Below, piece by piece: positions 1,983-49,162 of a DNA stretch of 64,000 bases; position 1 is the stretch's first letter; every line of letters begins with the position of its first letter. The notes below the pieces were generated by a model. It ran no database searches, had not been told where the DNA came from, and was given only the letters and a program-made list of their open reading frames with translations. The stretch is taken from assembly GCA_045539335.1 (NCBI GenBank), contig JAZQFD010000038.1, forward strand, positions 40 to 64,039, given 5' to 3'. The position numbers and the translations under genes were made by a program. Origin of the DNA: Eubacteriales bacterium (GTDB taxonomy: Bacteria > Bacillota > Clostridia > Oscillospirales > QAKW01).

Positions 1983-4900
1983 TTAACCGAGAACGGCATT
2001 CAGAACCTCTGCAGAGCAGGGAACCATGTCTCTCATGTACTCGATTACATAAGGAGTGATCAGCTCATAACCATTGGCATTGGCATGAGTACCATCCTTG
2101 GTATTCTTCTCATAGATGGTTCCGATATCGCTCATGTTGAGTGCATTATTCAGGTCCTCATTATTGTAGAGATCCAGGTAAGCAATGCCCCACTTCTCGC
2201 AGACCTCTTCGGCAGCTGCGTACATTTGAGCATGCTTGGTGGTATCTGCCTTCAGCTTATAGGTGCTCATGAAGCCGATGGCCGCATTGTCACCATAAAG
2301 CTTGATGGCCTTATAGATGGTGTACTCCAACGCACCGGTGAAGGTGGATTGATCGAAGGTAGCGGGATCGAAGGAATCGGTAATGGTTCCGATACCGGAG
2401 ATCTTGCTTGCATCGTTGGTACCACCCTGCAGCAGTACATACTGATAATCATTAGCCGTGTACTTATCCAGCAGCTTATGAATGGAATCATACTTATCGG
2501 TGGTTGCATTACAGAAGTACCATCCGCTGGTACCGGCGTTGGTAGCGGCCAAACCGGTATCACGCTGCACACGCAGAGCCCAACCGCCGGGCTGAGTCTG
2601 AGTTGCCATGGTGTCATGGCTATAGAGACCATGGTTGATGGAGTCGCCTGCGAAGAGGCCGGCTTTGTTGAACAAAGCATCTGCTACTGCAGCATTGGAA
2701 ATGCCGGTCTGAGCAGTATAGTCTGCCACACCAAAGACCTTATTCTTCATCACCAGATACTTGCCGATCATGGAGGCAGGAACGTTCACACGAACGGACT
2801 CAACGCCGGCAGGAACCTTATAAGAATAAACCTTCAGACCCTTGGCGAAGGATTCGCCCTCCGTCATATTAACGGCGTTGATCAGTTCAACAGCCTTGCC
2901 GGAAGCATCAAAGGCATAGCCCAAAACAACCTGTGCGGTAGATGCAGGACCGATGGTGAGGACATCGCCTTCGGTTACATTAATCGCATGAGTCAGATTG
3001 TAGGAAACAGAGGAGGTGATAGCACCCTTCCAATCGACGGTTTCGGAGGTATGATCCAAAACGCCATCATAGAGGTTGATACCATCCTGCTTGCTCCAGT
3101 AAGCATAATAATCTTCAGTGGTCATCTTCTGACCCAAGGAGATCAGGAAGCGATCTGCATAGTTTGCAGAAGCATTCACCATAACGGTACCGGCCTCGGG
3201 AGCGGTATAAGAATAGATCTTATAGTTGCCGCCGAAGGAGGAAACCTCGGTCACACCTGCCACGCCAATGGTATCAGCGCCGGAGGTGGCACCGGTGAAG
3301 ACCAGCATATCAGCCTGAGATGCAGCGGTGGGACCAAACCATACGGTCTCGCCTGCCTTCACCGAGAAGGCAACGCCTGCATTCTGCAGATGGCTGGTGG
3401 AATTCTTAGAGCCAACAGGCTTCAGAATGGAACCGGGATGAGCCAGATGCCAGAGGATCATCTGAGCATCCACAACGGTGAGACCGGCCTTACCATCCAG
3501 TTCGCCGGCGGCGGGCTGGGTCATGGTGGGAGTGGCCAAACCAACGGTATCCTGCATAACCAGAACGGCATCGTCAGACAATACGCTGTTGGACTTGTTC
3601 ACATCGCCCCACAGGAAGTCATCGCCTTCTACAACGATGGCGCACTTGCCGTCGGCATAAGCGGTCACATTCTTGTTCTCATCGATAACATCCATGGTAG
3701 AGATGGTAACAGCATCGGGATAATTACCAAAGCCTACCGTGTCTTTCACCTTCAGGGTCAGCACGAATGCAGCATCATTGGCAGTCACCACGGTGGGATT
3801 GGCAACGATAACCTTAAAGGGTGCAATGGGAGCGGCGGCGCCGGTATTGTAGCCCATGAAGTAACGGAACAGGCCGGTGCCCTCTACATCGATGACAGAG
3901 AACTTATCAAAATCAAGATTTACATTGAAGGTAGCACCCTTCAGACCGGGATTGTTATCAAAGCCAACTTCAACCTTTACAAAGTCGCCGGGCTTCGCAA
4001 CACCCACAGGATTCACAGTGATATTACCCAGCACCATGGCAACCACGGTGGTATCCTCGGTAAAAATCACATTGGTAATATCGCCCTTCACATCCCAATA
4101 ACCATTCAAAATGGTGGTATCGGGCTGATAGAGATTACCGTTGATATCGGTATAACCGGTGGCAACAGCATTTCCATCCTTCTCGAAGGTAATGGTATGC
4201 TTCTCCTGCTTGCCGGCCAAAACCAGAGCGGGATATCCGGTCTTACCATTCATATTCCACTTAGCGGTAGCATCCACCAAAGCGGTGTTCATGGCATCCA
4301 CGGAGGTATAACCATTATTGCCATAGGTCTTTGCATTGGTAACGGCAACGGTTCCGTTGAACAAAGCGGCCATCTTATTGTTGCCGGTGAAGACATTGGA
4401 TGCGGTAACGGTGCCGGTTCCCAAGGTGGCAACGGCGGCAACGGCATTGCCCAGAGCGCCGAACACGCCAACATTATTGATCACAACAGCAGCATCGCCT
4501 GCATTGCCGATCAGCAAACCGGTGGTGGCATTGGCATTTACGGTGTAATCCACGGCTTCACTGTTCTTCACGGTAAGCTTACCGGTTGCGGTGCCCACCA
4601 AAGCAGCAACACCGGTGGAATTCAGAACAGAAATACCATCAATGGTAACATCGCCGGCAGTAGCATTCACCAAAACGGCGGCATCTGCTACTTGGGCATT
4701 CTCGAAGTTTACATTCTTCAGAGAAGCACCGGCATAATTCATAAAGAAGGAATGATCTGCAACAAAGTTTGCTACAGTATGGCCCAAACCATCAAAGGAA
4801 GCAACCATATCCTGGATGCCGGCAAAGTTCACGCCGGAGAGATTGATATCGGCATTGAGGTAAACCGTCTGCTCAGCAGGCAGGTACATTCCCAATACGG

Positions 4901-12736: not shown

Positions 12737-12772
12737 AGAGCCTCCAAGGAGTTTTTCCTTGGAGGCTTCTTT
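12737..12772. terminator. Bidirectional terminator between the small ORF (+) and EEP lipoprotein P1 (-)
   Basis: 12-bp stem AGCCTCCAAGGA/TCCTTGGAGGCT flanked by an A-run and a T-run. Confidence 0.75.
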
Positions 12773-14148
12773 TATCGATACATGAAATAGGGACCGTTTT
12801 CGCCGTAATCATAGGGCTCACGCCAGTATTGAGAATAATCCGGCGTGGTGCCGATCCGCAAGCGAACCAAAACCGCCCAGTGATCCGAAATCATACCCTT
12901 GGCGATCCCCTCTTCCGGATAGTCATAGAGGGTATAGTCCATGCCATAATAATCCACGCAAACATTGGGATGGGGCTTCATGGTAATATGGTCGATCTGG
13001 GTTTTGCCGCCCAGCTCCGATTCGGGAGGAATCTGACCTTTATTAAAATGAGAGCCGTTGTAGGAGCCGTTCAAGGGGCCCAGCTCGCAAAGACCATCGT
13101 CATTAAGATACATAGCCATATCCCGCAGGTCAATGATCTTATCCCATTCGATCATGGTATTATAATCCTCTCCTCGATAGGTGGCATTATAGTCGCCGCC
13201 CACAAAGGCATAGGCATCGGGCTCCATCTTTTCAAACCGCTGATAGAACAGCTGCATGGCGCCTACGCAAGCCTCCAGATTATCGGAGCCATGATAGGTA
13301 TGCAGACAGTGGATATATACGATCTCGCCGGTTTCCTTCACCTGCAGCTTTGCCCAAGTGGAAACATCCGCACCGGCCTGACCACTGAAGCCGGGGCCCT
13401 CCTGCCAGGGGGTGGGAGAGATCCAGAAATGGCCGGTATCCAGGGTCTTAAAGGTGGCGTTTTTCCAAATGACCGGCTCACTCATCAAATGGCCGTCCAA
13501 GGTGGAGTGGCGATCATGATACACATAATCATAAACCTGCTCCAGATAGGGATCTTCATTAAAGAAGTTTTTAAAGGTGATCTTGGCTTCGTTAAAGAAA
13601 ATGACATCGGGGTCTTGTTTCTTGATCATGGTCTTCAGGCGGCGAAGACGATTGTAAATGTTATTATTGGTGCCGTCCCCCTTTTCGCCATACGCCGCAT
13701 AGCCCGCATGCTTTACATTCTGAGAGATCATGGTCAAGGCAGTACCGCTGGACTCTTTTTCCATCTTGACCCATTCTTTTTCCCCATCCTCGGGGTTCTT
13801 GGTATCCTCAGGATCTTTGGTATCCTCAGGCTCCTTAGAGTCTTCAGGGTCTTTGGTATCCTCCGGGTCTTTCGTGTCCTCAGGATCTTTGGTATCCTCG
13901 GGCTCTTTGGAGTCTTCAGGATCTTTGGTATCCTCGGGCTCTTTGGAGTCTTCAGGGTCTTTGGTATCCTCCGGGTCTTTGGTGTCCTCAGGATTCTTGG
14001 TGGGCTCCTTCTTATCGTCGCCGGACTCCTCTTCCAGCACATCGGCAACGCCGAAGCCTTCCTCCTCTTCCTTCCCCTTACAGCTTGCCAGCATGGTAAG
14101 GCTCATGGTCAATATCAGTAATAAACAAATCCATCTGAATTTCTTCAT
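12772..14148 (-). CDS. EEP-family (endonuclease/exonuclease/phosphatase fold) lipoprotein, paralog P1, with (PEDTKD)n acidic spacer
   Basis: Lipobox MKKFRWICLLLILTMSLTMLASC. EEP blocks are SQNVKH, FFNEA, CLHT, GGDYN, QIDH and SDHW. The ATG at 14148 has a GAGGAT RBS. The upstream extension to 14187 runs through the P2 terminator. Confidence 0.85.
   Translation of the reverse strand: MKKFRWICLLLILTMSLTMLASCKGKEEEEGFGVADVLEEESGDDKKEPTKNPEDTKDPEDTKDPEDSKEPEDTKDPEDSKEPEDTKDPEDTKDPEDTKDPEDSKEPEDTKDPEDTKNPEDGEKEWVKMEKESSGTALTMISQNVKHAGYAAYGEKGDGTNNNIYNRLRRLKTMIKKQDPDVIFFNEAKITFKNFFNEDPYLEQVYDYVYHDRHSTLDGHLMSEPVIWKNATFKTLDTGHFWISPTPWQEGPGFSGQAGADVSTWAKLQVKETGEIVYIHCLHTYHGSDNLEACVGAMQLFYQRFEKMEPDAYAFVGGDYNATYRGEDYNTMIEWDKIIDLRDMAMYLNDDGLCELGPLNGSYNGSHFNKGQIPPESELGGKTQIDHITMKPHPNVCVDYYGMDYTLYDYPEEGIAKGMISDHWAVLVRLRIGTTPDYSQYWREPYDYGENGPYFMYR
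13793..14008 (-). repeat. In-frame 18-bp tandem repeat (~12 units) encoding (P-E-D-T/S-K-D/E)n in P1
   Basis: The unit GGATCTTTGGTATCCTCA and close variants are read directly on the plus strand. Confidence 0.9.
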
Positions 14149-14166
14149 CGGTATATCCTCATCTTT

Positions 14167-14201
14167 TGAAAAAAGCCTGCCGATCACATCAAGCAGGCTT
14201 T
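14167..14201 (-). terminator. Terminator after P2
   Basis: AGCCTGC/GCAGGCT stem followed by T6 on the minus strand. Confidence 0.6.
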
Positions 14202-14211
14202 TTATTCTTAA

Positions 14212-15648
14212 TTATCCAAGTACCTTGGCAGGCACATTGCTTTCACGCCAATACAAAGGACCATCACCATAATCATGGGGCATCATGTACTGGGAATAAT
14301 CCACATTGGTATCAATGCGGACATCCACGATCAACGCATAGTGGTCGGAGATCCAGCCTTCTTGGGCACCCTCTTCGGGGCAAGCATAACGACCATAATC
14401 ATTTCCATAATAATCAATGGTCATTTTGGGATTGTATTTTGCCATCAGATGGTCGATCTGCCTACTGCCGCCGGGATTGGCTACATTGGCCACATTGTTA
14501 TCAAAAGCGGAGCCGATAAAGGAACCGTTCATTTCGCCCAGTTCGCACAGATCATGCTCCCAAAGGTTCAAAGCCACGTCACGCAGGTCAACGATCAAGC
14601 TCCAATCCATCATGGTATAGTACTTCTCGGTACGGTACTGCACATTATAGTCGCCGCCGGCAAAAAGATATTCATCCGGCTTCATCTTCTCTACGATCCG
14701 CAGATACTGCTGGAAAGACTTGATCTGGGACACCTGACCGGTATGGGCATAGTGAACACAATAAGCGGTAAAGACCGAGCCGGTCTGCTTATCCTTTACC
14801 TTTACCCAGCAGTTTACATCGCCATAATCGGCATCGGCATCATAAGACTTGGAGGGACGGTCGGGGGTTTCCGAGGTCCACATATAACCCTTCTCCAATT
14901 CCTTATACTTGGAGGTCTTCCAAAGGATGGGCTCGGTCTGACGACCGCCATCCATGCTGGGGCTGGGGTTTCTCCAGGTCCAGCAAATATCATAAACCTG
15001 AGAGAAATAAGGGTTATTTTCAAAGAAATCAATGGTGGCCGCACGGGCTTCCTGCTCCATGATGATATCGGGATCGTACTTCTTCACCATGGTGGTAAAA
15101 CGGTTCAGACGGTTGATCTTAGAGATGCTGGTACCGTCACCCACCACGCCGTAGCTACCGCCGGAGTGCTTAATGTTCTGAGAAAGGAAGCGGATCTTGG
15201 TGCCGCTGCCGTCATCCTTTACCGGCTCTGCCGTTTTAGGATCAAACTGCTCCAACTCATCATCCTCAAAGATCGGCTCATCGGAAGGTTCCTCCTCAGA
15301 AGGATCATCGGAGGGGTCCTCATTGGAAGGATCGTCGGAAGGATTCTTGGAGGGATCCTCATTGGAAGGATCGTCCTTATCATCCGGTTCATCGGCAGGG
15401 TCATCCTTATCGTCGGGCTCGTCGGTAGGGTCATCCTTATCGTCGGGCTCGTCGGTAGGATCATCCTTATCGTCAGGCTCGTCGACAGGGTCATCCTTAT
15501 CGTCGGGCTCTTTGGTATCATCGTCTTCTACCTCGACCCACTCGCCGGCGGTTGCGCCCTCTTCTTCATCAACGGTTTTGCAACTTGCCAGCATGGTAAC
15601 GCTCATAATCACAACCAACAGCAAGCACAGCCATCTCAAATGCTTCAT
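14212..15648 (-). CDS. EEP-family lipoprotein, paralog P2, with (DDKDDPxDEP)n acidic spacer
   Basis: Lipobox MKHLRWLCLLLVVIMSVTMLASC. EEP blocks are SQNIKH, MEQEA, CVHY, GGDYN, QIDH and SDHY. The ATG at 15648 has a GGAGGA RBS. Confidence 0.85.
   Translation of the reverse strand: MKHLRWLCLLLVVIMSVTMLASCKTVDEEEGATAGEWVEVEDDDTKEPDDKDDPVDEPDDKDDPTDEPDDKDDPTDEPDDKDDPADEPDDKDDPSNEDPSKNPSDDPSNEDPSDDPSEEEPSDEPIFEDDELEQFDPKTAEPVKDDGSGTKIRFLSQNIKHSGGSYGVVGDGTSISKINRLNRFTTMVKKYDPDIIMEQEARAATIDFFENNPYFSQVYDICWTWRNPSPSMDGGRQTEPILWKTSKYKELEKGYMWTSETPDRPSKSYDADADYGDVNCWVKVKDKQTGSVFTAYCVHYAHTGQVSQIKSFQQYLRIVEKMKPDEYLFAGGDYNVQYRTEKYYTMMDWSLIVDLRDVALNLWEHDLCELGEMNGSFIGSAFDNNVANVANPGGSRQIDHLMAKYNPKMTIDYYGNDYGRYACPEEGAQEGWISDHYALIVDVRIDTNVDYSQYMMPHDYGDGPLYWRESNVPAKVLG
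15370..15510 (-). repeat. In-frame 30-bp tandem repeat (~4.7 units) in P2
   Basis: The unit GTCATCCTTATCGTCGGGCTCGTCGGTAGG is repeated head-to-tail. Confidence 0.9.
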
Positions 15649-15738
15649 AATCAGGTCCTCCTTGCGGAAAAGATATATATACACATTAATAATAACATAT
15701 TAATTGATAAATGCAAACCTTTTTTGCATTTTTTTAAC

Positions 15739-15770
15739 AAAAAAAATCCCCAAAGAGATTCTTTGGGGAT
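15739..15770 (-). terminator. Terminator after P3
   Basis: TCCCCAAAG/CTTTGGGGA stem followed by T8 on the minus strand. Confidence 0.75.
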
Positions 15771-15780
15771 TTTAAAGACA

Positions 15781-17130
15781 TCATCGCCAGTAAATAGGAT
15801 TATTGCCGTAGTCATGCTCGGTTTGATAATAGGTATAGTCGGCATCGGTATCCAGCCGCAACTTTACCACCAAACCATAGTGGTCGGCAATATAGCCGCT
15901 TTGAATATCATCGGCAGGGTAGGTATAGTGGGTATAGTCAAAGCCATAATAGTCGATGGCCATATGGGGGTTGGGCTTTGCCATCAGATAGTCGATCTGA
16001 TGCTTATTTCCGGGGGTGGGATCTTCTTCATTTTTATCGAAACGACCGGCGGTGCCGCTGCCGTACATGCCACCCAATTCGGTCAGTCCGTCGGTATACA
16101 TATTCATGGCCACATCCCGCAGATCCATCAGCTTATCCCATTCCATCATCATCATATAATCATCGCTGCGATAGAGCACATTCCAGTCGCCGCCGATAAA
16201 GGCATAGGTGCCATCCTTCAGATCCGCAACGGTATTGCTCAGCTGCTCTTGGGATTTGAGCTGGCCGGTTTCACCAAAGCCGAAATGGTTGGAATAGGCA
16301 TAGAACTCCACGCCGGTGGCTTTATCCTTCAGCTGCACCCAAGTAATGATACGACCGTATGCCGATTCATCATCATAAGAGGTAGAGGGCATTTTGGGGG
16401 TTTCGGAAAGCCAGAAAAAGCCACTGTTTAGCTTGGTATATTTCTTGGTTTTCCAAAGAAGGGGGGTACACTCATCGCCGCCGGGTACATCGCCGGGGCC
16501 TCGCTTTTGCCAGATGACGGTATAATCCGCAAACAGCTCACTTTCAAAGGCTTTGGTCCAGCCGATACGCCCTTCTTGCCCTAAGATCACATCGGGATCA
16601 TGGGCATCCACCATGGCACGGAAACGGCGAATACGGTTATAAATGTTGTTGCCGGTGCCGTCGTTTTTCTCACCTAAACTGACGCCGGCGTGCTTTAAGT
16701 TCTGAACCAAAATAGTTACCGGAGTGCCGCTGCTTTCTTTTTCCACAGGGCCGGGCACAGAAGGCTCATCCTCCGAAGGCTCATCCTTAGAGGGTTCGTC
16801 AGAAGGCTCCTCATTGGAGGGCTCATCCTTCGAAGGCTCGTCCTTGGAGGGTTCGTCTTCCGAAGGCTCATCCTCAGTGGGATCCTTATCGGAGGGCGCC
16901 TCAGAGGGCTCCTCATCGGAAGGTTCGTCCTTCGAAGGCTCATCCTCAGTGGGATCCTCATCGGAGGGCTCCTCTTCAGACGGCTTTTTATCGCCGTTGT
17001 CTTTATCAAAATTACCGTCCAGGGTCTCGGTGAAGCCCAATTCTTCCTCCTCCGAGCTCTTGCAGCTTGCCAGCATGGTGACACTCATCACCAAAATCAG
17101 CAGCAAACTAATCCATCTTAAATGCTTCAT
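15781..17130 (-). CDS. EEP-family lipoprotein, paralog P3, with (EPSxD/E)n acidic spacer
   Basis: Lipobox MKHLRWISLLLILVMSVTMLASC. EEP blocks are VQNLKH, GQEG, SNHF, GGDWN, QIDY and ADHY. The start at 17130 lies only 16 nt after the P4 stop. Confidence 0.85.
   Translation of the reverse strand: MKHLRWISLLLILVMSVTMLASCKSSEEEELGFTETLDGNFDKDNGDKKPSEEEPSDEDPTEDEPSKDEPSDEEPSEAPSDKDPTEDEPSEDEPSKDEPSKDEPSNEEPSDEPSKDEPSEDEPSVPGPVEKESSGTPVTILVQNLKHAGVSLGEKNDGTGNNIYNRIRRFRAMVDAHDPDVILGQEGRIGWTKAFESELFADYTVIWQKRGPGDVPGGDECTPLLWKTKKYTKLNSGFFWLSETPKMPSTSYDDESAYGRIITWVQLKDKATGVEFYAYSNHFGFGETGQLKSQEQLSNTVADLKDGTYAFIGGDWNVLYRSDDYMMMMEWDKLMDLRDVAMNMYTDGLTELGGMYGSGTAGRFDKNEEDPTPGNKHQIDYLMAKPNPHMAIDYYGFDYTHYTYPADDIQSGYIADHYGLVVKLRLDTDADYTYYQTEHDYGNNPIYWR
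16761..16985 (-). repeat. Imperfect in-frame short tandem repeats encoding the Pro/Ser/Asp/Glu spacer of P3
   Basis: Reiterated GAAGGCTCATCCT/GAGGGTTCGTC-type units. Confidence 0.7.
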
Positions 17131-17146
17131 CTTCTTTTCTTCCTTT

Positions 17147-18460
17147 TTATGTTTCAAAATACATGGGGCCATCCCCATAATCATAAGGCTCTTCCTGATA
17201 TTGGGAATAATCGGCATCGGTGGCGATCCGCACCTTGACCACCAAGCCGAAATGGTCGGAAATATGCCCCGGCTTTACGTCGTCGGCGGGGTAATCATAG
17301 GTGGTGTAGTCAAAGCCGTAATAATCCACCGCCACATGGGGGTCGGGCTTCATCATCACATAGTCGATTTGACTCCCTTCCTTTTTGACCTCCGGCATCA
17401 AATGCACATCCTCGGTGGCGGCATCATAATTCACATTGGTGCCGGTATACATTCCGCCCAATTCCGTCAGCCCATCATCATACATATAAAGGGCCACATC
17501 CCGAAGATCCACCACCTTCTCCCAGTCCATCATGCTTTCATAGGCAAATTTGCGGTAATGGGAATTGAAATCTCCGCCAAAAAAGGTATAGATTCCTTCT
17601 TCCATTTCATCCGCCACCTGATGATATTGCAGCATGGAGGGAACCACAATATCGGCATCATTTCCCGGTCGAAAATGGGTAGAGGCGCAATAGAGCTTTT
17701 CGCCGCTGGCTTTTTCCTGCAAAATTGCCCAGCTGACGATGGTTTCTCCACCATCATAGCTGGAGGGGACATGCGGAGTTTTACTCAGCCAGAAAAAGCC
17801 TTGATCAACCGCCTTAAAACGGGCCGTTTTCCAAAGAAGCGGCTCTGCCTGCACTCCGTTTTCATACCGATAGTGGGTGGTGTAGGTCTCCATAAAATAC
17901 CGATCCTGCTCCGTCAAAAAGGAGATAGCGCCCTTGCGGGCTTCGCTATAAAAAATAATATCGGGATCATGGGTCTGCACCAAGGATTTAAAGCGGCGCA
18001 TTCGGTTATAGATATCGTTGCCGGTGCCATCCCCTTTAACGCCCATTCGAGTGCCGGAATGGCGCACATTCTGGGAAAGAAAGGTGATGGCCACTCCGCT
18101 ATCCTCTTTTTCCACCGGCTTTGGCTTTTGCTCCGGTTCCGAAGGCGGTTCCTCTTGGGGAGGCTCCTCATCAGGCTTCTCCGAGGGGAGTTGCTCCTCC
18201 TTGGGTTCTTCCGAAGCATCCGGCGTTTCTTGGGGCGGTTGCTCCACATCCGGTTCTTTATTTGTTGGGTCGGAAGAGGGCTCTTTTGGAGAATCCTCTT
18301 CCTTCTCCGGCTCTTTTTCCGGCATTTTTTCTTCTTCCTGCTCCAGCACATCGGCAATGCCGAGATTCTCCTCTTCGGGGGCTTTGCAGCCTTCCGAAAG
18401 AGTCAGACACAGAGCCAAAAGTAACAAAAAACTAATCCATCTTAATTGTTTCATTCTCAT
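17147..18460 (-). CDS. EEP-family secreted protein, paralog P4 (atypical lipobox, non-repetitive Pro/Glu spacer)
   Basis: Signal peptide MRMKQLRWISFLLLLALCLTLSEGC has Glu at -2 of the lipobox. EEP blocks are SQNVRH, YSEA, STHF, GGDFN, QIDY and SDHF. Confidence 0.8.
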   Translation of the reverse strand: MRMKQLRWISFLLLLALCLTLSEGCKAPEEENLGIADVLEQEEEKMPEKEPEKEEDSPKEPSSDPTNKEPDVEQPPQETPDASEEPKEEQLPSEKPDEEPPQEEPPSEPEQKPKPVEKEDSGVAITFLSQNVRHSGTRMGVKGDGTGNDIYNRMRRFKSLVQTHDPDIIFYSEARKGAISFLTEQDRYFMETYTTHYRYENGVQAEPLLWKTARFKAVDQGFFWLSKTPHVPSSYDGGETIVSWAILQEKASGEKLYCASTHFRPGNDADIVVPSMLQYHQVADEMEEGIYTFFGGDFNSHYRKFAYESMMDWEKVVDLRDVALYMYDDGLTELGGMYTGTNVNYDAATEDVHLMPEVKKEGSQIDYVMMKPDPHVAVDYYGFDYTTYDYPADDVKPGHISDHFGLVVKVRIATDADYSQYQEEPYDYGDGPMYFET

Positions 18461-18463
18461 TTA

Positions 18464-18495
18464 CCAAAAAGGCGCCTTCACAAGGGAAGACGCCT
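18464..18495 (-). terminator. Terminator after P5
   Basis: AGGCGTCTTC/GAAGGCGCCT stem (one mismatch) followed by T5 on the minus strand. Confidence 0.6.
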
Positions 18496-18502
18496 GATTT
18501 TA

Positions 18503-19909
18503 TTAACTGTTGTAGTACTTCATTTCAAAGTTGAAATAGCGAGGCTTATCGCCGAATTCATAGGGTCCTTGCTGATATTGAGAATAATCGGCATCGGTAT
18601 TGATGCGAACCTTCACCACCAAGCCCCAGTGATCGGAAATATGGCCGTGGGCAATGCCTTCGGCTTTATAATCATAGACCGTATAGTCAAAGCCATAATG
18701 ATCCACCGCCACATGAGCGTTAGGCTTCATCATCACATAGTCGATCTGATGAGAGGTGCCAATGGCATCGGGATCGGATACACTGGGTTCCGGCTCATTT
18801 CTACCAAAGGCAAGGTTATGGCCGCTGCCCATGCCGCCGAAGGTGGTTAGGTTATGGTCGCCCATCCAAAGGGCCACATCCCGCAGATCTACGATCTTAT
18901 CCCATTCCAGCATCTGAATGTATGTATCGCTGCGATAATAGCAGTTATAGTCGCCGCCTACGAAAGCATAAGCGTCCTTTTCAATCTTTTCAAAACGGTC
19001 ATAGTAAAGCTGCATAGCACCGATATCCGCCTCGGGATTGCCGGGGTCGGTATGGAGGCAGTAGGCATAGATGATCTCACCGCTCTTCTTCACCTTCAGC
19101 TTTACCCAGGTAGAAACGTCGGCACCCTTCTGACCGCCAAAGCCCGGACCCTCTTGATTGGGGGTGGGAGAGATCCAGAAATGGCCTCTTTCCAACTCCT
19201 TGAACATGGAGGTTTTCCAAAGGACCGGCTCACTCATCAAGTGACCGGCCAAGGTAGAATGGCGATCCTGCCACACAAAATCATAAGTCTGGCTCATATA
19301 AGGATCTTCGTTGAAAAACCGCTTAGCGGTTTCTTTTGCTTCATTATAGAAAATGATATCGGGATCATTGACCGTCACCATGGTTTTGAACCGACGCAAA
19401 CGGTTATAAATATTCATATCAGTGCCGTCGCCTTTTTCCCCATAAGGAGTATAGCCGGCGTGCTTTACGTTTTGAGACACAAAGGTAATGGCGGTGCCGC
19501 TGTTTTCTTTTTCTACCGGCTTAACCTCTACCGGCTTCTCATCATCCCCCTGCTCAGGATCCTTATCGGGCTCTGTGCCCTCATCAGGCTCCTTGGTATC
19601 CTCAGGGTCTTTGGTATCCTCAGGATCCTTGGTGTCCTCGGGATCCTTGGTATCGTCGGGATCTTTGGTATCGTCGGGATCCTTGGTGTCATCAGGATCT
19701 TTGGTATCGTCGGGATCCTTGGTTTCATCAGGATCTTCAGAATCGTCGGGATCGTCTTTGGAGGAGTTATCATCCTCATCCTTATTAAAGTTATTATCCA
19801 GCGTCTCGGTAAAGCCCAGGTCTTCTTCCTCGGGGCCCTTGCAGCTTGCCAGCATGGTGATGCTCATCATTACAATCAGCAAAAGGCTGATCCATCTAAG
19901 ATGCTTCAT
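18503..19909 (-). CDS. EEP-family lipoprotein, paralog P5, with (DPD/EDTK)n acidic spacer; closest to P1
   Basis: Lipobox MKHLRWISLLLIVMMSITMLASC. EEP blocks are SQNVKH, FYNEA, CLHT, GGDYN, QIDY and SDHW. AGGAGA RBS is present. Confidence 0.85.
   Translation of the reverse strand: MKHLRWISLLLIVMMSITMLASCKGPEEEDLGFTETLDNNFNKDEDDNSSKDDPDDSEDPDETKDPDDTKDPDDTKDPDDTKDPDDTKDPEDTKDPEDTKDPEDTKEPDEGTEPDKDPEQGDDEKPVEVKPVEKENSGTAITFVSQNVKHAGYTPYGEKGDGTDMNIYNRLRRFKTMVTVNDPDIIFYNEAKETAKRFFNEDPYMSQTYDFVWQDRHSTLAGHLMSEPVLWKTSMFKELERGHFWISPTPNQEGPGFGGQKGADVSTWVKLKVKKSGEIIYAYCLHTDPGNPEADIGAMQLYYDRFEKIEKDAYAFVGGDYNCYYRSDTYIQMLEWDKIVDLRDVALWMGDHNLTTFGGMGSGHNLAFGRNEPEPSVSDPDAIGTSHQIDYVMMKPNAHVAVDHYGFDYTVYDYKAEGIAHGHISDHWGLVVKVRINTDADYSQYQQGPYEFGDKPRYFNFEMKYYNS
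19586..19756 (-). repeat. In-frame 18-bp tandem repeat (~9 units) in P5
   Basis: The unit GGATCCTTGGTATCGTCG and variants. Confidence 0.9.
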
Positions 19910-19935
19910 AGTATTTCTCCTTTTTTGCAGGTTCT

Positions 19936-19972
19936 AGAAAAAAGACCCGTGAAAAGATCTATTCACGGGTCT
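19936..19972 (-). terminator. Terminator after P6
   Basis: 11-bp stem AGACCCGTGAA/TTCACGGGTCT followed by T6 on the minus strand. Confidence 0.8.
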
Positions 19973-19985
19973 GATTTTAATTGGA

Positions 19986-21425
19986 TTACTCAGCCATATC
20001 CATATTGAACCAAACGTCTCTACCCTTTGCCTTATAGTCATAAGGATCACGGTAGTACTGAGAATAATCAGGCTCGGTATCGATACGAACCTTTACCACC
20101 AACCCCCAGTGGTCAGAGATCTGGCCCTTTTGAACCTTATCTTCCGGTGCATCGTATACTTTATAATCAAAACCATAATGGTCGATGGCCATATGAGCCA
20201 TGGGCTTTGCCATTACAAAGTCGATCTGAGAGCCCTTGCCCACCACATCGGGATTTACAACCTTGGGAAAGCCCTTGGGATCGGGATCATAATTATAGTT
20301 ATGTCCGCTGGCCATGCCGCCCAAAGTGCAAAGACCATCGTCATTAAAGTACATAGCGGCATCACGCAGGTCGCAAACCAAGCTCCAATCCTTCATCATA
20401 TCGCTATAGCGAGTAGACTTGGAGTTCATGTCACGATAGTAAGCGTTGAAATCGCCGCCCAGGAAGTAATACTCATTGTCGGCCGTCTTCTTAATACGAT
20501 CATAGTAGATCTGCATGGTCTTGGGGCAAACCTCCTCACCGGAGGGGCTGGTATGTACCGAAGCGGCATAGAAGACAACGCCGGTCTTCTTATCCTGCAG
20601 CTTTGCCCAAGTATTGATATCGCCGTATGCTGCATCAGAGTCCCAAGACTTACCGGGAGCGTTCTGCTTATCGTTCAGCCAGATAAAGCCGCTTTCCAGT
20701 TCCTTAAAGCGGGAGGTCTTATAAAGCAGAGGCTCTGCCTGGTCACCGCCCAGAATGGAGTTGCCGGATTCGAACCAACGATATTTCCAAAGCAGCTTAT
20801 AGGTTTGAGCAAAATAAGGATCCTCCGACAGAAAGGCAATGTTGCCGGAACGAGCCTCATTATAGAAGATGATATCGGGATCATTGGCCTTTACCATGGA
20901 TCTGAAACGACGCATCTTATTATACACGCCCAAACCGGTACCATCGCCGGCAGCGCCCACAGAACTACCGTCATGACGGATGTTCTGCGCCATAAAGGTG
21001 ATGGCGGTACCGCTGCTTTCCTTCTCCATCTTTACCCATTCTTTTTCTTCATCGGGCTCCTTGGAGGGCTCATCAGAAGGATCATCCGAGGGATCATCGG
21101 AAGGATCATCGGAAGGGTCATCCGAGGGATCGTCAGCAGGGTCATCGGAAGGATCGTCCGAGGGCTCATCCGAAGGCTCATCGGAAGGGTCATCCGAGGG
21201 ATCATCCGAAGGATCGTCTGAAGGATCATCGGAATCGTCGGGCTCACGGGTCTCGTCGCCTTCATAAGGGACGGTAACGCTATCCGGCTTATCTTCAACC
21301 TCAACAACGTCAACATTACCGGCACGATCCGGATATGTTGCACCGCCTGCGCAGGATGCCAGCATGGTGCTGAGCATCGCCACAACAACGATTAAGGTTG
21401 CTGCTTTCATCCATTTCATTTTCAT
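19986..21425 (-). CDS. EEP-family lipoprotein, paralog P6, with (DDPS)n acidic spacer
   Basis: Lipobox MKMKWMKAATLIVVVAMLSTMLASC. EEP blocks are AQNIRH, FYNEA, SVHT, GGDFN, QIDF and SDHW. GGAGGA RBS is present. Confidence 0.85.
   Translation of the reverse strand: MKMKWMKAATLIVVVAMLSTMLASCAGGATYPDRAGNVDVVEVEDKPDSVTVPYEGDETREPDDSDDPSDDPSDDPSDDPSDEPSDEPSDDPSDDPADDPSDDPSDDPSDDPSDDPSDEPSKEPDEEKEWVKMEKESSGTAITFMAQNIRHDGSSVGAAGDGTGLGVYNKMRRFRSMVKANDPDIIFYNEARSGNIAFLSEDPYFAQTYKLLWKYRWFESGNSILGGDQAEPLLYKTSRFKELESGFIWLNDKQNAPGKSWDSDAAYGDINTWAKLQDKKTGVVFYAASVHTSPSGEEVCPKTMQIYYDRIKKTADNEYYFLGGDFNAYYRDMNSKSTRYSDMMKDWSLVCDLRDAAMYFNDDGLCTLGGMASGHNYNYDPDPKGFPKVVNPDVVGKGSQIDFVMAKPMAHMAIDHYGFDYKVYDAPEDKVQKGQISDHWGLVVKVRIDTEPDYSQYYRDPYDYKAKGRDVWFNMDMAE
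21064..21240 (-). repeat. In-frame 12-bp tandem repeat (~15 units) in P6
   Basis: The unit GGATCATCCGAG and variants. Confidence 0.9.
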
Positions 21426-37481: not shown

Positions 37482-37522
37482 AAAAGAGCGACCAAGGGCA
37501 GCCCTTGGTCGCTCTTTTTTTA
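37482..37522. terminator. Bidirectional terminator between mgtC-like (+) and dockerin-EEP D1 (-)
   Basis: 14-bp stem AGAGCGACCAAGGG/CCCTTGGTCGCTCT flanked by A4 and T7. Confidence 0.85.
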
Positions 37523-38875
37523 TGTAATAACAAATTCGGCAAAGACGCCTAAATGATCGGAAACCCAATAGCCATTCCACTTTTCATCTGCGATGGTATA
37601 GTTGGGATTATAGCCGCCGAAATTCTCCAGTTCGTTGAGATTTTCGTCGTAGGTTTCTTCCATAACATTGTAGCGCACGCAGGTGGCATGCTGGATATCG
37701 TCGGTGAAAAAGATATCGCCACGAACCGGAATGGTGCCATCCTCTTGCACATTTCTGCCCCAGCGGGGGAAGGTGCCCTGCAACTGGCCCATCAGTTCGC
37801 CCACATCGGTAAAGGTGGTGGCCAGTTCATTGAAGAAGGGGGCATCGGATGGATTGCAATAATCCAGATTCATATCGCCCCCCATCACAATGGGGGCATC
37901 GCCGTATTTGGCAGTAAGCTCTGCCTGTTTGTTGTTCAGAAGATCTGCCACCGCCTTACCATAAAGAGTGGCTTCTGCATCGTCGAGATTGGGGCCATGG
38001 CAGTTGATGAAGTAAAACTCCTCGCCGGTATGGTTATCATGGAGCTTGACCCAAACGGCTTGGCGCTGGTTGCCGTCATAATAAAGACCTTCCTCATTGG
38101 CGGTAACCTCCGGAGCACCGAAATAGTGGCTCATAACATCGGGGGTCTCAGAAAACCAAAAATTACCTTTAACGGGATTACCATCGGCATCGGTGCAAAG
38201 GTCAAAGCGCTCATCATTCCAGAAAACGGCGGCATATTCTTCGATATAAAGCGGCATCTCCGCAGAAGAACCCGCCCCCTCCCGCTCATTCAGCGAAAGA
38301 TCCACACGGCAAACAATATGGTTTTCATACTCGCCGGCAGGGAAAATGGTCTGCTCAAACAAGGTGCGCCAGTCGGTCCAGCGATATTCCTGCAGACCGA
38401 TTACATCGGGCTGATACTTTTCCATCAAGAGGGGCATCCGTTGCATGCGGTATTTCTTAGCATCCAGCGGCCGAGAACCACCGCCGCCATGAAGAATGTT
38501 TTGGATCATAAATTTGACCCGATAATTCTCAAAATGATAAATGCCGGTCTTATCATGGGTAGCCACCACCGCATCGTCGGGAGCGGCTTCCAGTTCTACC
38601 TCCCAGCCTGCGGCCTTGCGAAGCAGCAGCACCGCATCGCTCATATCGGCGGCACCGTCCCCGGAAACAAACATGTTCTTTTCTTGCTTGACGCCGGCAT
38701 AAGATTGACCTGCCAACAGTCTTAAAGTAACGGCCGCATCCAAAATATCAATGGTCCCGTCTTGATTCACATCACCGGGGGTTATGGCAGCCGCCGAAGC
38801 AGCAGGCGCTCCCAGCCATGTTCCCATAAAGATCGCAAACGCCAGCAAAGTGGCCGTCAACTTCTTTCTTTTCAT
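37520..38875 (-). CDS. Secreted dockerin-like plus EEP-family phosphoesterase, paralog D1
   Basis: Signal peptide ...WLGAPAASAAA and dockerin-like GDVNQDGTIDILDAAVTLRLLAG. EEP blocks are IQNILH, LQEY, NCHG, GGDMN, RGDIFF and SDHL. The ATG is at 38875 (GTG at 38878 is possible). Confidence 0.85.
   Translation of the reverse strand: MKRKKLTATLLAFAIFMGTWLGAPAASAAAITPGDVNQDGTIDILDAAVTLRLLAGQSYAGVKQEKNMFVSGDGAADMSDAVLLLRKAAGWEVELEAAPDDAVVATHDKTGIYHFENYRVKFMIQNILHGGGGSRPLDAKKYRMQRMPLLMEKYQPDVIGLQEYRWTDWRTLFEQTIFPAGEYENHIVCRVDLSLNEREGAGSSAEMPLYIEEYAAVFWNDERFDLCTDADGNPVKGNFWFSETPDVMSHYFGAPEVTANEEGLYYDGNQRQAVWVKLHDNHTGEEFYFINCHGPNLDDAEATLYGKAVADLLNNKQAELTAKYGDAPIVMGGDMNLDYCNPSDAPFFNELATTFTDVGELMGQLQGTFPRWGRNVQEDGTIPVRGDIFFTDDIQHATCVRYNVMEETYDENLNELENFGGYNPNYTIADEKWNGYWVSDHLGVFAEFVIT
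38603..38776 (-). other. Dockerin-like module of D1 (aa ~35-92)
   Basis: The first repeat is canonical (D-V-N-Q-D-G-T-I-D-I-L-D plus helix). The second, VSGDGAADMSDAVLLLRKAAGW, is degenerate. Confidence 0.6.
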
Positions 38876-38897
38876 CACGATAATCCTTTCTATAAAC

Positions 38898-38928
38898 CAT
38901 TACTGCCTGCAAAAAGCAGGCAGTAATG
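38898..38928 (-). terminator. Hairpin between D2 and D1 (weak terminator)
   Basis: 13-bp stem CATTACTGCCTGC/GCAGGCAGTAATG. The minus-strand downstream tract is only GTTTAT. Confidence 0.4.
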
Positions 38929-38936
38929 AAAAAAGA

Positions 38937-40316
38937 TTAGGTTAATACAATATCGGCGCAGATTCCCAAGTGATCGGAAACCCAATAGCCGAAGCAACGG
39001 TCTTCCCCGTCCACGGTACCTTCAGGGTTAAAGCCGCCGAAGTTTTCCAGCTCATTAAGATTCTCGTCGTAGGTTTCTTCCAATACCTTATAATTGGCAA
39101 TCGATAAATCATCGTCGTTAAAGGTAAAGAAATAGTCGATACGGGCTTTAATGGTACCATCCGGCTGTACATTGCGGCTAAAATTGGGGAAGGTGCCCTG
39201 CATATTGCCGGTAGCCACTGCCAGATCCGTAAAGCCGTAGTTCACAAACTGGTCATAGGCAACTCGGTCGCAGGCCAGGGCATAATTTAAGTTAAAGTCG
39301 CCGCCCATAATAACGGGGGCTTCGCCGTACTTTTCAAAATACAACTGCACCCGATCATTGAGCAGCTTTACGGCGGGGATCAAACTCGCTTCTACACCGG
39401 CCGCCGTATCGCTGGCGTTGGGGCCGTGAACGGCATAGTAATAAAATTCTTTGCCGGTATGATTGTCGTGGAGTTTGACCCACACGCATTGGCGCTGACG
39501 GCCATCAATGTAGTTCCCTTCATCATCTTGCCCCACAGATTGGGTACAACCGAAATAAGTAGACATCACATCGGGAGTCTCGGAAAACCAGAAGTTGCCC
39601 TTAATGGCATTGCCCTCGCTATCCAGGCAAAGGTCAAACCGCTCGTCCTTCCAAAAGATTGCCATCTTTTCTTCGATGTACAAGGGCATCTCAGGGGTGG
39701 ATCCTGCGCCCTCCCGCTCGTTTAAAGAAAGGTCCACACGGCAAACGATATGGTTTTCATGAGTGCTGGCAGGGAAAATGGTATTTTCAAACAGGTTGTA
39801 CCAGTCACTCCACCGATACTCCTGCACGCTGCAAATATCCGGCTGATATTTGCCCATCAAAACCGGCATCCGCTGCATGCGGTATTTCTTTTTGTCCAAC
39901 GCTCTGGCGCCGCCGCCTGCATGAAGAATATTCTGATTAAGCACCCGCATGGAATAATCATCGTAGTAATAGAACAGTGATTCCTCATGCTGGGCAACCG
40001 TTGCGTCCGATTGGGCCGCCTGCATTTCTACATCCCATCCGGCGGCATTGCGGAGCATCAGCACCACATCGGCCATATTGGCAACGCCGTCACCACTAAC
40101 AAACATACCCTTCTCTTGCTTGGTGCCATTATAAGCGGCACCGGAAAGCAACCGCAGGCTGACGGCAACATCCAAAATATTGGATACGCCATCTCCGTTT
40201 ACATCGCCGGGTACGATGGTAGCTGCTTGAGCCGGCAATTGAGCGACGCCCAAGGTGCCAACCAGCATCACTCCCGCCAAAAGCCCGCAGATTTTTCTTT
40301 TCATGGTGCCCATCAT
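38937..40316 (-). CDS. Secreted dockerin-like plus EEP-family phosphoesterase, paralog D2
   Basis: The start at 40316 (GGAGGA RBS, MMGTMKRKICGLLAG...) avoids overlap with D3. Dockerin-like GDVNGDGVSNILDVAVSLRLLSG. EEP blocks are NQNILH, VQEY, AVHG, GGDFN, RIDYFF and SDHL. Confidence 0.85.
   Translation of the reverse strand: MMGTMKRKICGLLAGVMLVGTLGVAQLPAQAATIVPGDVNGDGVSNILDVAVSLRLLSGAAYNGTKQEKGMFVSGDGVANMADVVLMLRNAAGWDVEMQAAQSDATVAQHEESLFYYYDDYSMRVLNQNILHAGGGARALDKKKYRMQRMPVLMGKYQPDICSVQEYRWSDWYNLFENTIFPASTHENHIVCRVDLSLNEREGAGSTPEMPLYIEEKMAIFWKDERFDLCLDSEGNAIKGNFWFSETPDVMSTYFGCTQSVGQDDEGNYIDGRQRQCVWVKLHDNHTGKEFYYYAVHGPNASDTAAGVEASLIPAVKLLNDRVQLYFEKYGEAPVIMGGDFNLNYALACDRVAYDQFVNYGFTDLAVATGNMQGTFPNFSRNVQPDGTIKARIDYFFTFNDDDLSIANYKVLEETYDENLNELENFGGFNPEGTVDGEDRCFGYWVSDHLGICADIVLT
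40032..40208 (-). other. Dockerin-like module of D2
   Basis: GDVNGDGVSNILDVAVSLRLLSG ... VSGDGVANMADVVLMLRNAAGW. Confidence 0.6.
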
Positions 40317-40335
40317 GGGATCCTCCACTTTCTTC

Positions 40336-41676
40336 TTATTCAAAGACCATTTCCGAAACGATTCCATAGTGGTCTGAGCAAACACCCTCTACCGTTACCG
40401 TTTGGCCGGTGGTAGAATCGGTATAGGTTGCAGGGGCCACATCCTTCACAACCTTATAGCTGACCACATTGGGCTTGCCGTTGGTAAAGAAATAGTCGAT
40501 GCGGTTCAGTGCGGTTCCGGGCTGCCCGTTCTTGTAATCGTTATAAGCACTGAAGGTGCCGCCTTCATCGCCCATCAGTACCGCCACGTCGGTAAGGTTT
40601 TCTCCTAAGGGCACATACGCCTCAGTGGTGGGATACAGGTTAAAGTCACCACTGATTACGGCCGGATAATCTCCTGCAATGCTCTTTAAGCGATCCACTA
40701 CCAACTGAGAAGATTTGGTGCGGGATTCAATGGTCGTGGAGGCATTCAAATGAGTGTCGAAATAATAGAAGATGTCACCGGTCAAATTATCCTTCAGCTT
40801 TACCCAGATACACAGACGGTTGCGGTTATCCACATAGTAGCTGACGGTGGTATCGTTGTAGGTGCCGGTTGCAATATCACTGTCCGTCAAGGTGGTATCA
40901 TGGGGCGCAGAGTTCACATCGGGAGTGGCGCTGAGCCAATAATGTCCCTGATCCAGGCAGGTGAACCGACTGGTCTTCCAGAAAATTGCCAAACGCTCAT
41001 CGGGCTGATAGGCCTCCTCGGGAACGCCGGTACCGCCACGGGCATAAGCCAAAGCCTTCGCCTCGGTTTCGGTATCCCGAGCAGGATCGGCACGGGTTAC
41101 CACATACTTACTGTAGACCGAAGGGTCTAGAATGGTGGTCGATGCATTAGTGCCTTCCCAAGCGGCGAACCAAGTACTATGCCGATACTCCTGCACACCG
41201 ATCACATCGGGGCTATACAGGGGGATGATTTTTTGGAATCGCTGAATACGGGCGGCGCGGCTATTGGGGTCTGCATCGTTGGAATGGCGGATGTTTTGGC
41301 TCATAAATTTCACATAGGCGCCGTAGTAGAAGACATGGTTATCCTCATTCTCCTCCACGGTAACACCGGAGGGGATACCGGACAATTCCACATCCCAACC
41401 GGCGGCCTTGCGAAGCAACAGAACTGCATCGCTCATATCAGCCACATTATCACCACTGACAAAAAGGCTCTCCTTTTGAACGGTACCGCCATAAGAAGCG
41501 CCGGAATACAGCCGCAAGGAAATGGCGGCATCCAACACGTTGACCTTACCGTCTTTATTCACATCACCGGGGGTCACAGTTGCCGCATGAGAGGAAAATT
41601 GCGTCATTCCCATCATACAAACCACCGTTACCACTCCGCAAAGAGCAGAAATTTTACGAATCCATGTGTTTTTCAT
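40336..41676 (-). CDS. Secreted dockerin-like plus EEP-family phosphoesterase, paralog D3 (most divergent)
   Basis: Signal peptide ...MTQFSSHAA and dockerin-like GDVNKDGKVNVLDAAISLRLYSG. EEP blocks are SQNIRH, VQEY, DTHL, SGDFN, RIDYFF and SDHY. GGAGG RBS is present. Confidence 0.85.
   Translation of the reverse strand: MKNTWIRKISALCGVVTVVCMMGMTQFSSHAATVTPGDVNKDGKVNVLDAAISLRLYSGASYGGTVQKESLFVSGDNVADMSDAVLLLRKAAGWDVELSGIPSGVTVEENEDNHVFYYGAYVKFMSQNIRHSNDADPNSRAARIQRFQKIIPLYSPDVIGVQEYRHSTWFAAWEGTNASTTILDPSVYSKYVVTRADPARDTETEAKALAYARGGTGVPEEAYQPDERLAIFWKTSRFTCLDQGHYWLSATPDVNSAPHDTTLTDSDIATGTYNDTTVSYYVDNRNRLCIWVKLKDNLTGDIFYYFDTHLNASTTIESRTKSSQLVVDRLKSIAGDYPAVISGDFNLYPTTEAYVPLGENLTDVAVLMGDEGGTFSAYNDYKNGQPGTALNRIDYFFTNGKPNVVSYKVVKDVAPATYTDSTTGQTVTVEGVCSDHYGIVSEMVFE
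41395..41568 (-). other. Dockerin-like module of D3
   Basis: GDVNKDGKVNVLDAAISLRLYSG ... VSGDNVADMSDAVLLLRKAAGW. Confidence 0.6.
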
Positions 41677-41777
41677 AATGCCTCCAACCTACAGTTTCAA
41701 AATTGTAGTAAATACTTACACATTGTGTATTTTACCACTTTATTTCCAAGATTGCAATAGTTTTTATGTAATTATAT

Positions 41778-41816
41778 ATAAAGAAAAGGCGTCTTTTTTC
41801 GATAAAAGACGCCTTT
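41778..41816 (-). terminator. Terminator closing the FAD-oxidoreductase/LbH operon
   Basis: 13-bp stem AAAGGCGTCTTTT/AAAAGACGCCTTT followed on the minus strand by TTTCTTTATAT. Confidence 0.75.
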
Positions 41817-44056: not shown

Positions 44057-44098
44057 TATGCCACCACTAAGCATATTAAGTGATGGCATACTTTTTTT
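44057..44098. terminator. Hairpin between the ABC permease gene and the flavoprotein gene
   Basis: 12-bp stem TATGCCACCACT/AGTGATGGCATA (one mismatch). The good T7 tract is on the plus strand and only TTTCCC on the minus strand, so the orientation is ambiguous. Confidence 0.4.
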
Positions 44099-47724: not shown

Positions 47725-47870
47725 GCTCTGCCTCCTCCTTTTATTTCAACAGTTAAAATGATCCCACCCTTTTACAGGCCGATCTTTTCCGCCGCTTTAT
47801 TGAACTCTCTTAAGCCCTAAAACGCTCAAAGCCGCCCTGCTTTGGCAGCAGTGCGGGTTTCAGTCTTTTA

Positions 47871-47912
47871 GAAAAAATGACTAAGGCGGGGCGCGTTTGG
47901 GCCCCGCCTTAG
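47871..47912 (-). terminator. Intra-operon terminator/attenuator after the substrate-binding-protein gene
   Basis: 12-bp GC-rich stem CTAAGGCGGGGC/GCCCCGCCTTAG followed on the minus strand by TCATTTTTTC. Confidence 0.75.
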
Positions 47913-47923
47913 CTTAGAATGGA

Positions 47924-49111: not shown

Positions 49112-49162
49112 TGGTCTTTCCCTCCAAAATATTTTTTTATAATAATCCGCCCTTTGCGGTTA

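Follow-up and report, generated by a model that had tools for sequence, protein, structure and literature searches.

Analysis of a 64,000-nucleotide stretch of contig JAZQFD010000038.1 (assembly GCA_045539335.1; hereafter the window), from an uncultured lineage of the Eubacteriales, led to three tandem genes, designated D1, D2 and D3. Each of them encodes a signal peptide, an N-terminal dockerin module and a catalytic domain of the endonuclease/exonuclease/phosphatase (EEP) superfamily. We consider it probable that their products are surface phosphoesterases tethered by cohesins, that they belong to the EEP branch of BT3783, and that they possibly act on the phosphates of sugars or glycans. 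The parts of this reading are not equally firm. The domain identities are practically certain; tethering, which is argued from those identities together with the cohesins found in the window, is likely; a sugar or glycan phosphate as the substrate, proposed by analogy, is tentative.

Domain architecture of D1, D2 and D3

The three genes are neighbours with the same direction on the minus strand, are transcribed in the order D3-D2-D1 and span positions 37520-41676, exactly where an initial annotation of the window had placed them (coordinates of all features are collected in Table 1). Each product opens with an n-region, an h-region and an AxA-type site (ASA/AA, AQA/AT and SHA/AT), read directly from the sequence, and none of the three N-termini contains a lipobox cysteine. 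The dockerin begins about 5 residues past the predicted cleavage site. The arrangement that had been described beforehand, an ordinary Sec signal peptide followed by a dockerin-like module in place of a lipobox, is therefore borne out by the N-terminal sequences and by Pfam. Specifically, Dockerin_1 (PF00404) scores 31.6 bits in D1, 21.8 bits in D2 (E-value = 2.2e-4) and 27.0 bits in D3, at a Pfam cut-off of 22.9. Failure against dockerin hidden Markov models (HMMs) had been named in advance as a possible refutation and did not come about; D1 and D3 exceed the cut-off and D2 is marginal. The three modules align to one another gap-free, and that of D1 matches the solved dockerin CaDoc0917 (6KG9) over both repeats (phmmer, E-value = 7.9e-5), as well as other cellulosomal dockerins.

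The D1 module (94 residues) was also modelled with AlphaFold from an alignment of 14 sequences. The model has a mean predicted local distance difference test score (pLDDT) of 90.4, with helices at module residues 19-29, 40-43 and 53-63, and its 32 best Foldseek matches in the PDB are all dockerins. Against CaDoc0917, the template modelling (TM) score is 0.87-0.90 and the root-mean-square deviation (rmsd) 1.1-1.2 Å over 58-60 residues. Of the two calcium loops, the first follows the canonical pattern (D-V-N-x-D-G-x-x-[DN]-x-L-D). The second always has Phe where Asp is expected at ligand position 1, and it retains S/N/D, D, D/N and D at positions 3, 5, 9 and 12, respectively, so that the earlier description of a canonical first and a conserved but degenerate second repeat was accurate. 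Both repeats have Leu-Arg at positions 17-18 without exception. Judged by sequence and predicted fold, the N-terminal module of D1-D3 is a genuine type-I-like dockerin of about 90 aa.

A conserved beta-hairpin of about 25 residues follows the second dockerin helix (consensus AP.D.TV......YYYE; D1 residues ~95-118, window positions ~38528-38596) and is modelled with confidence even in the isolated dockerin module. Every dockerin-EEP protein has it, and it also forms the very end of dockerin proteins that have no EEP domain and occurs in lipoprotein EEPs that have no dockerin; P0050, P0056, P0071, P0089, P0104, P0158, P0025 and P0028 also carry it. Since it occurs with the dockerin in the absence of the EEP domain and with the EEP domain in the absence of the dockerin, its parent module is ambiguous.

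The remainder of each protein is an EEP catalytic domain. Exo_endo_phos (PF03372), the second profile that the initial annotation had proposed as a check, scores 25.6 bits in D1, 28.3 in D2 and 46.5 in D3, all above the curated cut-off of 24.5. The catalytic and metal-binding set is invariant in 12 aligned sequences (N127, E164, H294, D335, N337, D388, D441 and H442, in the 452-aa numbering of D1), and the anticipated motifs QNI, QEY, GD[MF]N, R[GI]D[IY]FF and SDH are all present at the expected places. The exact motif strings given for the trio hold overall, with trivial deviations: D3 has YWLSATPD in place of a string beginning with FW, and D2 has LDVAV in place of LDAA. D1 and D2 also carry three lineage-specific insertions, which are modelled as low-confidence loops.

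A full-length AlphaFold model of D1 (pLDDT 80, predicted TM score 0.81) gave 223 PDB matches at E ≤ 1e-3, and the best 50 of the 223 are all EEP enzymes, in agreement with the four-layer alpha/beta sandwich of that superfamily. The best are 3MPR and 4C1R, both BT3783 (E-values from 4e-20 to 5e-19; TM score of 0.74-0.79, normalised to the target), with 3G6S next, followed by TDP2, nocturnin and CNOT6L (E-values of about 1e-14 to 1e-15). Sequence searches of the PDB returned the same order, with BT3783 as the best match (E-values from 9e-5 to 6e-12) and the FWLSETPD signature shared. An NCBIfam scan returned nothing except sub-threshold ExoIII matches. The catalytic domains are strongly acidic (net charge of -13 to -31, pI 4.4-4.9), which would be a poor fit to a polyanionic substrate such as DNA, a weak argument. 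By analogy, the kinship with BT3783 gives a clue to the kind of chemistry; it does not assign a substrate.

Cohesins, lipoprotein paralogs and operon context

Both cohesin-like modules that the initial annotation had mentioned were found. The first belongs to a 408-aa protein, the candidate anchoring partner, which consists of a signal peptide, a cohesin (~50754-51170), a Pro/Ser/Thr linker, two KDENGN-type repeats, a transmembrane helix (51777-51854) and a basic tail. Its cohesin is recognized by Pfam and also matches solved cohesins in the PDB. A metagenome scan with this protein retrieved no close relatives, and one with the 230-aa lipoprotein whose gene adjoins it found nothing. The second cohesin lies within a secreted protein of 2286 aa and is followed directly by a divergent dockerin-like stretch, termed type B. 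The relative P0016 ends in the same cohesin and type-B cassette; a word-indexed homologue search with the cassette of the 2286-aa protein gave no match. A profile joining this cohesin with those of P0016 and P0018 matches solved cohesins (3L8Q, E-value = 1.9e-10; 1G1K, E-value = 1.3e-4). A three-sequence HMM built from cohesins of this kind missed the cohesin of the 408-aa protein (E-value = 0.74), the one that Pfam found. Within the docking system, the 2286-aa protein could serve as an adaptor or as an adhesin. Its further parts are beta-helix units of GLUG type (FDGxGHxIxN), present as repeats, a pair of beta-sandwich-like repeats and, at the C-terminus, an SGNH-like block (LFAGDSINHG); no membrane or wall anchor is visible in it.

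In the mechanism that we favour, each D protein would be exported by Sec, and signal-peptide cleavage would leave the type-I-like dockerin as the new N-terminus. This dockerin would plug non-covalently into a cohesin, keeping the enzyme at the cell surface instead of letting it diffuse off. Two routes can be envisaged: the dockerin could bind straight to the cohesin of the membrane-anchored 408-aa protein, or it could bind to the cohesin of the 2286-aa protein, whose type-B dockerin would then bind the membrane anchor. At the surface, the enzymes would hydrolyze extracellular phosphate esters in a Mg2+-dependent manner, most likely, by analogy with BT3783, those of a phosphorylated sugar or glycan.

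Several observations weigh against this reading. The dockerin of D2 is about 1 bit under the Pfam cut-off, and the second loop of all three dockerins has no Asp at position 1, so that Ca-dependent folding or binding may be atypical. The cohesin of the 2286-aa protein scores 21.5 bits, below the Pfam cut-off of 24.1, over profile positions 3-125 of 139, and the type-B stretch has no Pfam match. The inventory of cohesins and dockerins covers the 64 kb of the window, and the cohesin repertoire may thus be partial. As for the substrate, the D domains share only 21-22% identity with BT3783, and the operon has no genes for mannan degradation, or others specific to glycans, on its flanks; around it are encoded MgtC, a hexapeptide-repeat protein, an FAD protein and an ATP-binding cassette (ABC) transporter of nucleoside type. 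The substrate assignment is consequently weak.

Within the window, dockerins were found only on D1-D3 and, by eye, on the 2286-aa protein; the genes of glycoside hydrolase families 10 (GH10) and 77 (GH77) have none, and that of GH10 lies 5 kb from the operon. In the strict sense the window does not hold a cellulosome, as it contains single-cohesin proteins only, no carbohydrate-binding module and no dockerin-bearing glycoside hydrolase; the locus looks instead like a small system for docking at the surface outside the cellulosome. A wider hypothesis, which we regard as rather doubtful, is that the window encodes a self-contained, three-tier, non-cellulosomal docking system composed of a membrane cohesin, a giant adaptor with a cohesin and a second dockerin, and cargo with a distinct dockerin subtype (one canonical Ca site, Phe in loop 2 and the hairpin). 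The cargo would mainly be phosphoesterases (EEP here, Metallophos in relatives) together with leucine-rich repeat (LRR) adhesins. If true, it would amount to a surface "phosphoesterase complex" that removes phosphate from phosphorylated glycans, or from other polymers, in food, in the host or in microbes nearby.

The initial annotation had also pointed to an array of lipoprotein EEPs about 16 kb away and had read the two arrays as one enzyme family with two attachment strategies. The array exists, 16.1 kb from the trio, and comprises six paralogs that are 38-61% identical to one another and in which a long acidic linker of PEDTKD or DPSD repeats joins the lipobox to the catalytic domain. An atypical lipobox, LSEGC, is present in the fourth paralog (17147-18460). 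At the level of the family the statement is correct; however, D1-D3 share only 19-30% identity with the six lipoproteins in the catalytic domain, and they are old paralogs rather than products of a recent N-terminal swap. A cleaner swap is offered by the lipoproteins P0025 and P0028, which are 33-36% identical to D3 and in which a lipobox and a short linker replace the signal peptide and dockerin at the same junction. In total, nine secreted EEP paralogs are present in 64 kb, three with a dockerin and six as lipoproteins, and this number points to an unrecognized extracellular phosphate-ester substrate that would be important to the organism.

Concerning the gene starts, the open reading frame (ORF) list of the window gives minus-strand extents of 37520-38878, 38937-40385 and 40336-41676. 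The ATG of D3 is preceded by a GGAGG ribosome-binding site. For D2, the sequence makes ATG 40316 the most likely start; it has a GGAGG site 8 nt upstream, and the resulting 459-aa product is recorded as a called gene (P0163). With this start, the apparent overlap of D2 and D3 vanishes and a gap of about 19 nt separates them. D3-D2-D1 looks like a separate transcription unit because of the promoter-like sites upstream of D3 and the terminator-like hairpins on both flanks, all of them consensus matches only. The hairpin after D1 has a T-rich tail on the plus strand and a weaker one on the minus strand, and it is shared with the convergent MgtC gene. An additional hairpin with an 8-bp stem, CTGCCTGC-TTTTT-GCAGGCAG, lies in the 58-nt spacer between D2 and D1 (window ~38900-38921, minus strand) and could be a partial terminator or an element of mRNA processing or stability inside the operon.

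Upstream of the operon, a minus-strand group of genes at 44097-49735 encodes a Bmp/PnrA-type substrate-binding lipoprotein, a double ABC ATPase, two permeases and a phosphoribosyltransferase. It resembles a nucleoside-salvage set and is syntenic in relatives. Elsewhere in the window, the GC content falls to 0.438 at 26-28 kb, and the 519-aa ORF at 27655-29214 has no Pfam match.

Table 1. Positions of the D1-D3 genes, their modules and associated features in the window
Feature	Position	Strand	Basis
D3 gene, 446 aa, first in operon; signal peptide, dockerin and EEP domain	40336..41676	-	ORF, Pfam
D3 dockerin module	41323..41577	-	Pfam, family dockerin HMM, alignment
D3 EEP catalytic domain	40339..41322	-	Pfam, PDB sequence match, alignment
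D2 gene, 459 aa from ATG 40316 (most likely start); longest ORF reaches GTG 40385	38937..40316	-	ORF, Pfam
D2 dockerin module	39960..40217	-	Pfam, family dockerin HMM, alignment
D2 EEP catalytic domain	38940..39959	-	Pfam, alignment
D1 gene, 451 aa (P0001), start ATG 38875	37520..38875	-	ORF, Pfam
D1 dockerin module, two repeats and beta-hairpin extension	38528..38785	-	Family dockerin HMM (E-value = 2.3e-41), AlphaFold, Foldseek
D1 EEP catalytic domain	37523..38527	-	12-sequence alignment, AlphaFold, Foldseek
Two overlapping sigma-70-like promoter matches upstream of D3	41702..41757	-	Consensus scan only
Terminator-like hairpin, 13-bp stem and T-run, between upstream hexapeptide-repeat gene and D operon	41785..41816	-	Consensus match only
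Terminator-like hairpin, 17-bp stem, immediately after D1 stop	37482..37518	.	Consensus match only
Candidate anchoring partner, membrane-anchored single-cohesin protein, 408 aa	50694..51920	+	Pfam Cohesin, 45.5 bits, E-value = 1.2e-11
Divergent cohesin, residues 1604-1740 of the 2286-aa secreted protein (gene 1983-8843)	3624..4034	-	Pfam, profile
Type-B divergent dockerin-like stretch directly after the cohesin of the 2286-aa protein	3435..3611	-	By eye
Six tandem lipoprotein EEP paralogs with acidic low-complexity linkers	12772..21425	-	Comparator

Relatives and alternative explanations

A profile search run exhaustively against 1.84 billion representative proteins returned 5176 EEP relatives at E ≤ 1e-3, only 22 of them at E ≤ 1e-30, and the full layout of signal peptide, dockerin and EEP domain was found in about 11 clusters. 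A word-indexed search of 5.8 billion clusters gave 13 close family members. The dockerin-EEP clade of D1-D3 is therefore small and rare. D3 is 85% identical to P0013 and D2 83% identical to P0002, while D1 is about 60% identical to D2. The nearest genomes are metagenome-assembled genomes (MAGs) of uncultured Eubacteriales or Clostridia from the gut, with about 50% identity, and these, like the closer metagenomic relative L081, keep two or three tandem dockerin-EEP genes at the same syntenic site. Copy number varies among relatives: the MAG locus L002 has three such genes, as in the window, and L081 (8643-11374), the closest relative examined, has the orthologues of D3 and D2 only, with no gene at the place of D1 and otherwise identical synteny.

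In P0016 and P0018, this dockerin, the EEP domain and a Pfam-significant cohesin are combined in one polypeptide. The same dockerin of about 90 aa also closes large proteins that have nothing else in common (LRR_5, DUF4886 and Metallophos+LamG+FIVAR), lying at their very C-terminus, and it thus behaves as a portable docking tag. In other lineages, ordinary dockerins are fused to EEP domains at the N-terminus (P0057, P0076), internally (P0070, P0083) or at the C-terminus (P0058), which makes the combination recurrent and not unique. The metagenomic proteins P0107, P0137 and P0155 are unusual in having 3-6 tandem dockerin domains. P0107 and P0155 pair these domains with Flg_new (Listeria-Bacteroides) repeats, and a type IV pilin-like N_methyl motif is present in P0137.

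Three other explanations have to be set against cohesin-tethered phosphoesterases. Dockerin_1 is found in many organisms without cellulosomes, and the modules of D1-D3 might be orphan dockerins, that is, Ca-binding domains of dockerin fold that dock no cohesin and instead stabilize the enzyme or bind another ligand, the enzymes being released free. The degenerate second loop, with its Phe at position 1, would agree with such a role, and the multi-dockerin proteins P0107, P0137 and P0155, in which no catalytic domain was detected, hint at roles other than tethering. We nevertheless find it unlikely: two cohesins lie within the same 64 kb, in relatives this dockerin shares a polypeptide with a cohesin, the module's place at the extreme C-terminus of many unrelated secreted proteins is the hallmark of a docking tag, and the putative recognition positions, Leu-Arg 17-18 of both repeats, are invariant. 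A very improbable explanation is that the enzymes are directed at lipid or inositol phosphates, as sphingomyelinase, phospholipase C or inositol 5-phosphatase types acting on the membranes of host or neighbours. These activities exist in the EEP superfamily, and nine secreted paralogs suggest a diversified substrate range; however, neither a sphingomyelinase nor an inositol phosphatase is among the top 50 structural matches or the PDB sequence matches.

The chance is small that D1-D3 are extracellular nucleases, degrading environmental DNA or RNA and feeding the adjacent Bmp/PnrA-type nucleoside ABC transporter and phosphoribosyltransferase. The EEP superfamily takes in DNase I, ExoIII and TDP2, and TDP2, nocturnin and CNOT6L are the next-best fold matches of D1. 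The substrate-binding protein, the ABC ATPase, the two permeases and the phosphoribosyltransferase are located just upstream with synteny kept in relatives, and P0083, a related protein with a dockerin, shows the LTD+EEP arrangement that is characteristic of secreted nucleases. On the other hand, both sequence and fold favour BT3783, a sugar phosphatase, together with its relatives from structural genomics, with which FWLSETPD is shared, and the acidity of the catalytic domains also counts against a nuclease. Furthermore, a terminator-like hairpin and two unrelated genes part the transporter from the operon, and relatives keep the synteny of the entire region, MgtC, AraC and GH10 included, hence the linkage is non-specific. 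On the same three grounds (terminator, intervening unrelated genes and region-wide synteny), functional coupling to the upstream nucleoside transporter was rejected as the principal interpretation of the locus.

Comparison with known systems

Cohesin-dockerin assemblies have mostly been studied as machines for plant fibre or starch, and a phosphoesterase cargo would widen the display repertoire of gut Firmicutes. The dockerin-EEP trio overturns no concept. Automated Pfam annotation already labels dockerin-EEP proteins with PF00404 and PF03372, and both non-carbohydrate dockerin cargo and transmembrane-anchored cohesins are already known; in the literature on dockerins that we found, no paper describes a dockerin protein with an EEP or phosphatase domain. 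The initial annotation was accordingly right that such enzymes are not standard cellulosome cargo, and it overstated their uniqueness, given the five fusions in other lineages and the documented non-carbohydrate cargo. The locus constitutes a compact experimental set for binding specificity, with three dockerins, two cohesins and one possible adaptor, and offers an atypical dockerin with a single canonical Ca site and a hairpin extension.

With regard to the catalytic domain, the closest characterized relative is BT3783 of Bacteroides thetaiotaomicron (4C1R/3MPR), an EEP-fold mannosyl-6-phosphatase of a yeast-mannan utilization locus. This enzyme liberated phosphate from phosphorylated sugars, and a phosphorylated high-mannose N-glycan was also tried as its substrate (PMC4978465). 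D1-D3 share with it the catalytic residues and the FWLSETPD that follows the central strand, and, like BT3783, they would be secreted, Mg2+-dependent enzymes of a gut bacterium. BT3783, however, has no dockerin and sits in a polysaccharide utilization locus among mannan-degrading enzymes. BVU_0621 (3G6S) is a further close structural relative. The dockerin module, for its part, resembles the type I cellulosomal dockerins of Clostridium acetobutylicum (CaDoc0917, 6KG9, and 6KGC-6KGF), C. thermocellum and C. cellulolyticum in its two repeats of about 22 residues, its three-helix layout, the canonical first loop (D-x-N-x-D-G-x-x-[DN]-x-x-D) and Leu-Arg 17-18 in both repeats, and the D1 model superposes on them with an rmsd of 1.1-1.5 Å over 56-62 residues. 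It differs from them in its N-terminal position, where the C-terminal one is usual, in the Phe of loop 2, in the hairpin and in a cargo that is a phosphoesterase and not a carbohydrate-active enzyme.

Concerning the cohesins, single-cohesin proteins anchored by a transmembrane helix have been described in gut and rumen ruminococci, whose systems include scaffoldins with SGNH or LRR domains and many dockerin proteins that are not glycoside hydrolases (PMC13463774); non-carbohydrate dockerin cargo has also been reported from rumen metagenomes (PMC6487960). The 408-aa protein of the window, with one cohesin and a C-terminal transmembrane helix, has counterparts in the non-cellulolytic cohesin-dockerin systems of gut Oscillospirales, namely the R. 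bromii amylosome and the R. difficilis-type system with its transmembrane-anchored scaffoldins. Those systems are centred on amylases or plant-fibre enzymes, and the organism of the window belongs to another, uncultured lineage. Adaptor scaffoldins such as ScaC of R. flavefaciens combine one cohesin with one dockerin. The 2286-aa protein and P0016 are similar to them, as both carry a cohesin directly followed by a dockerin-like module; the difference is that in the 2286-aa protein both modules have diverged beyond what Pfam recognizes and are borne by a huge beta-helix/SGNH-like carrier.

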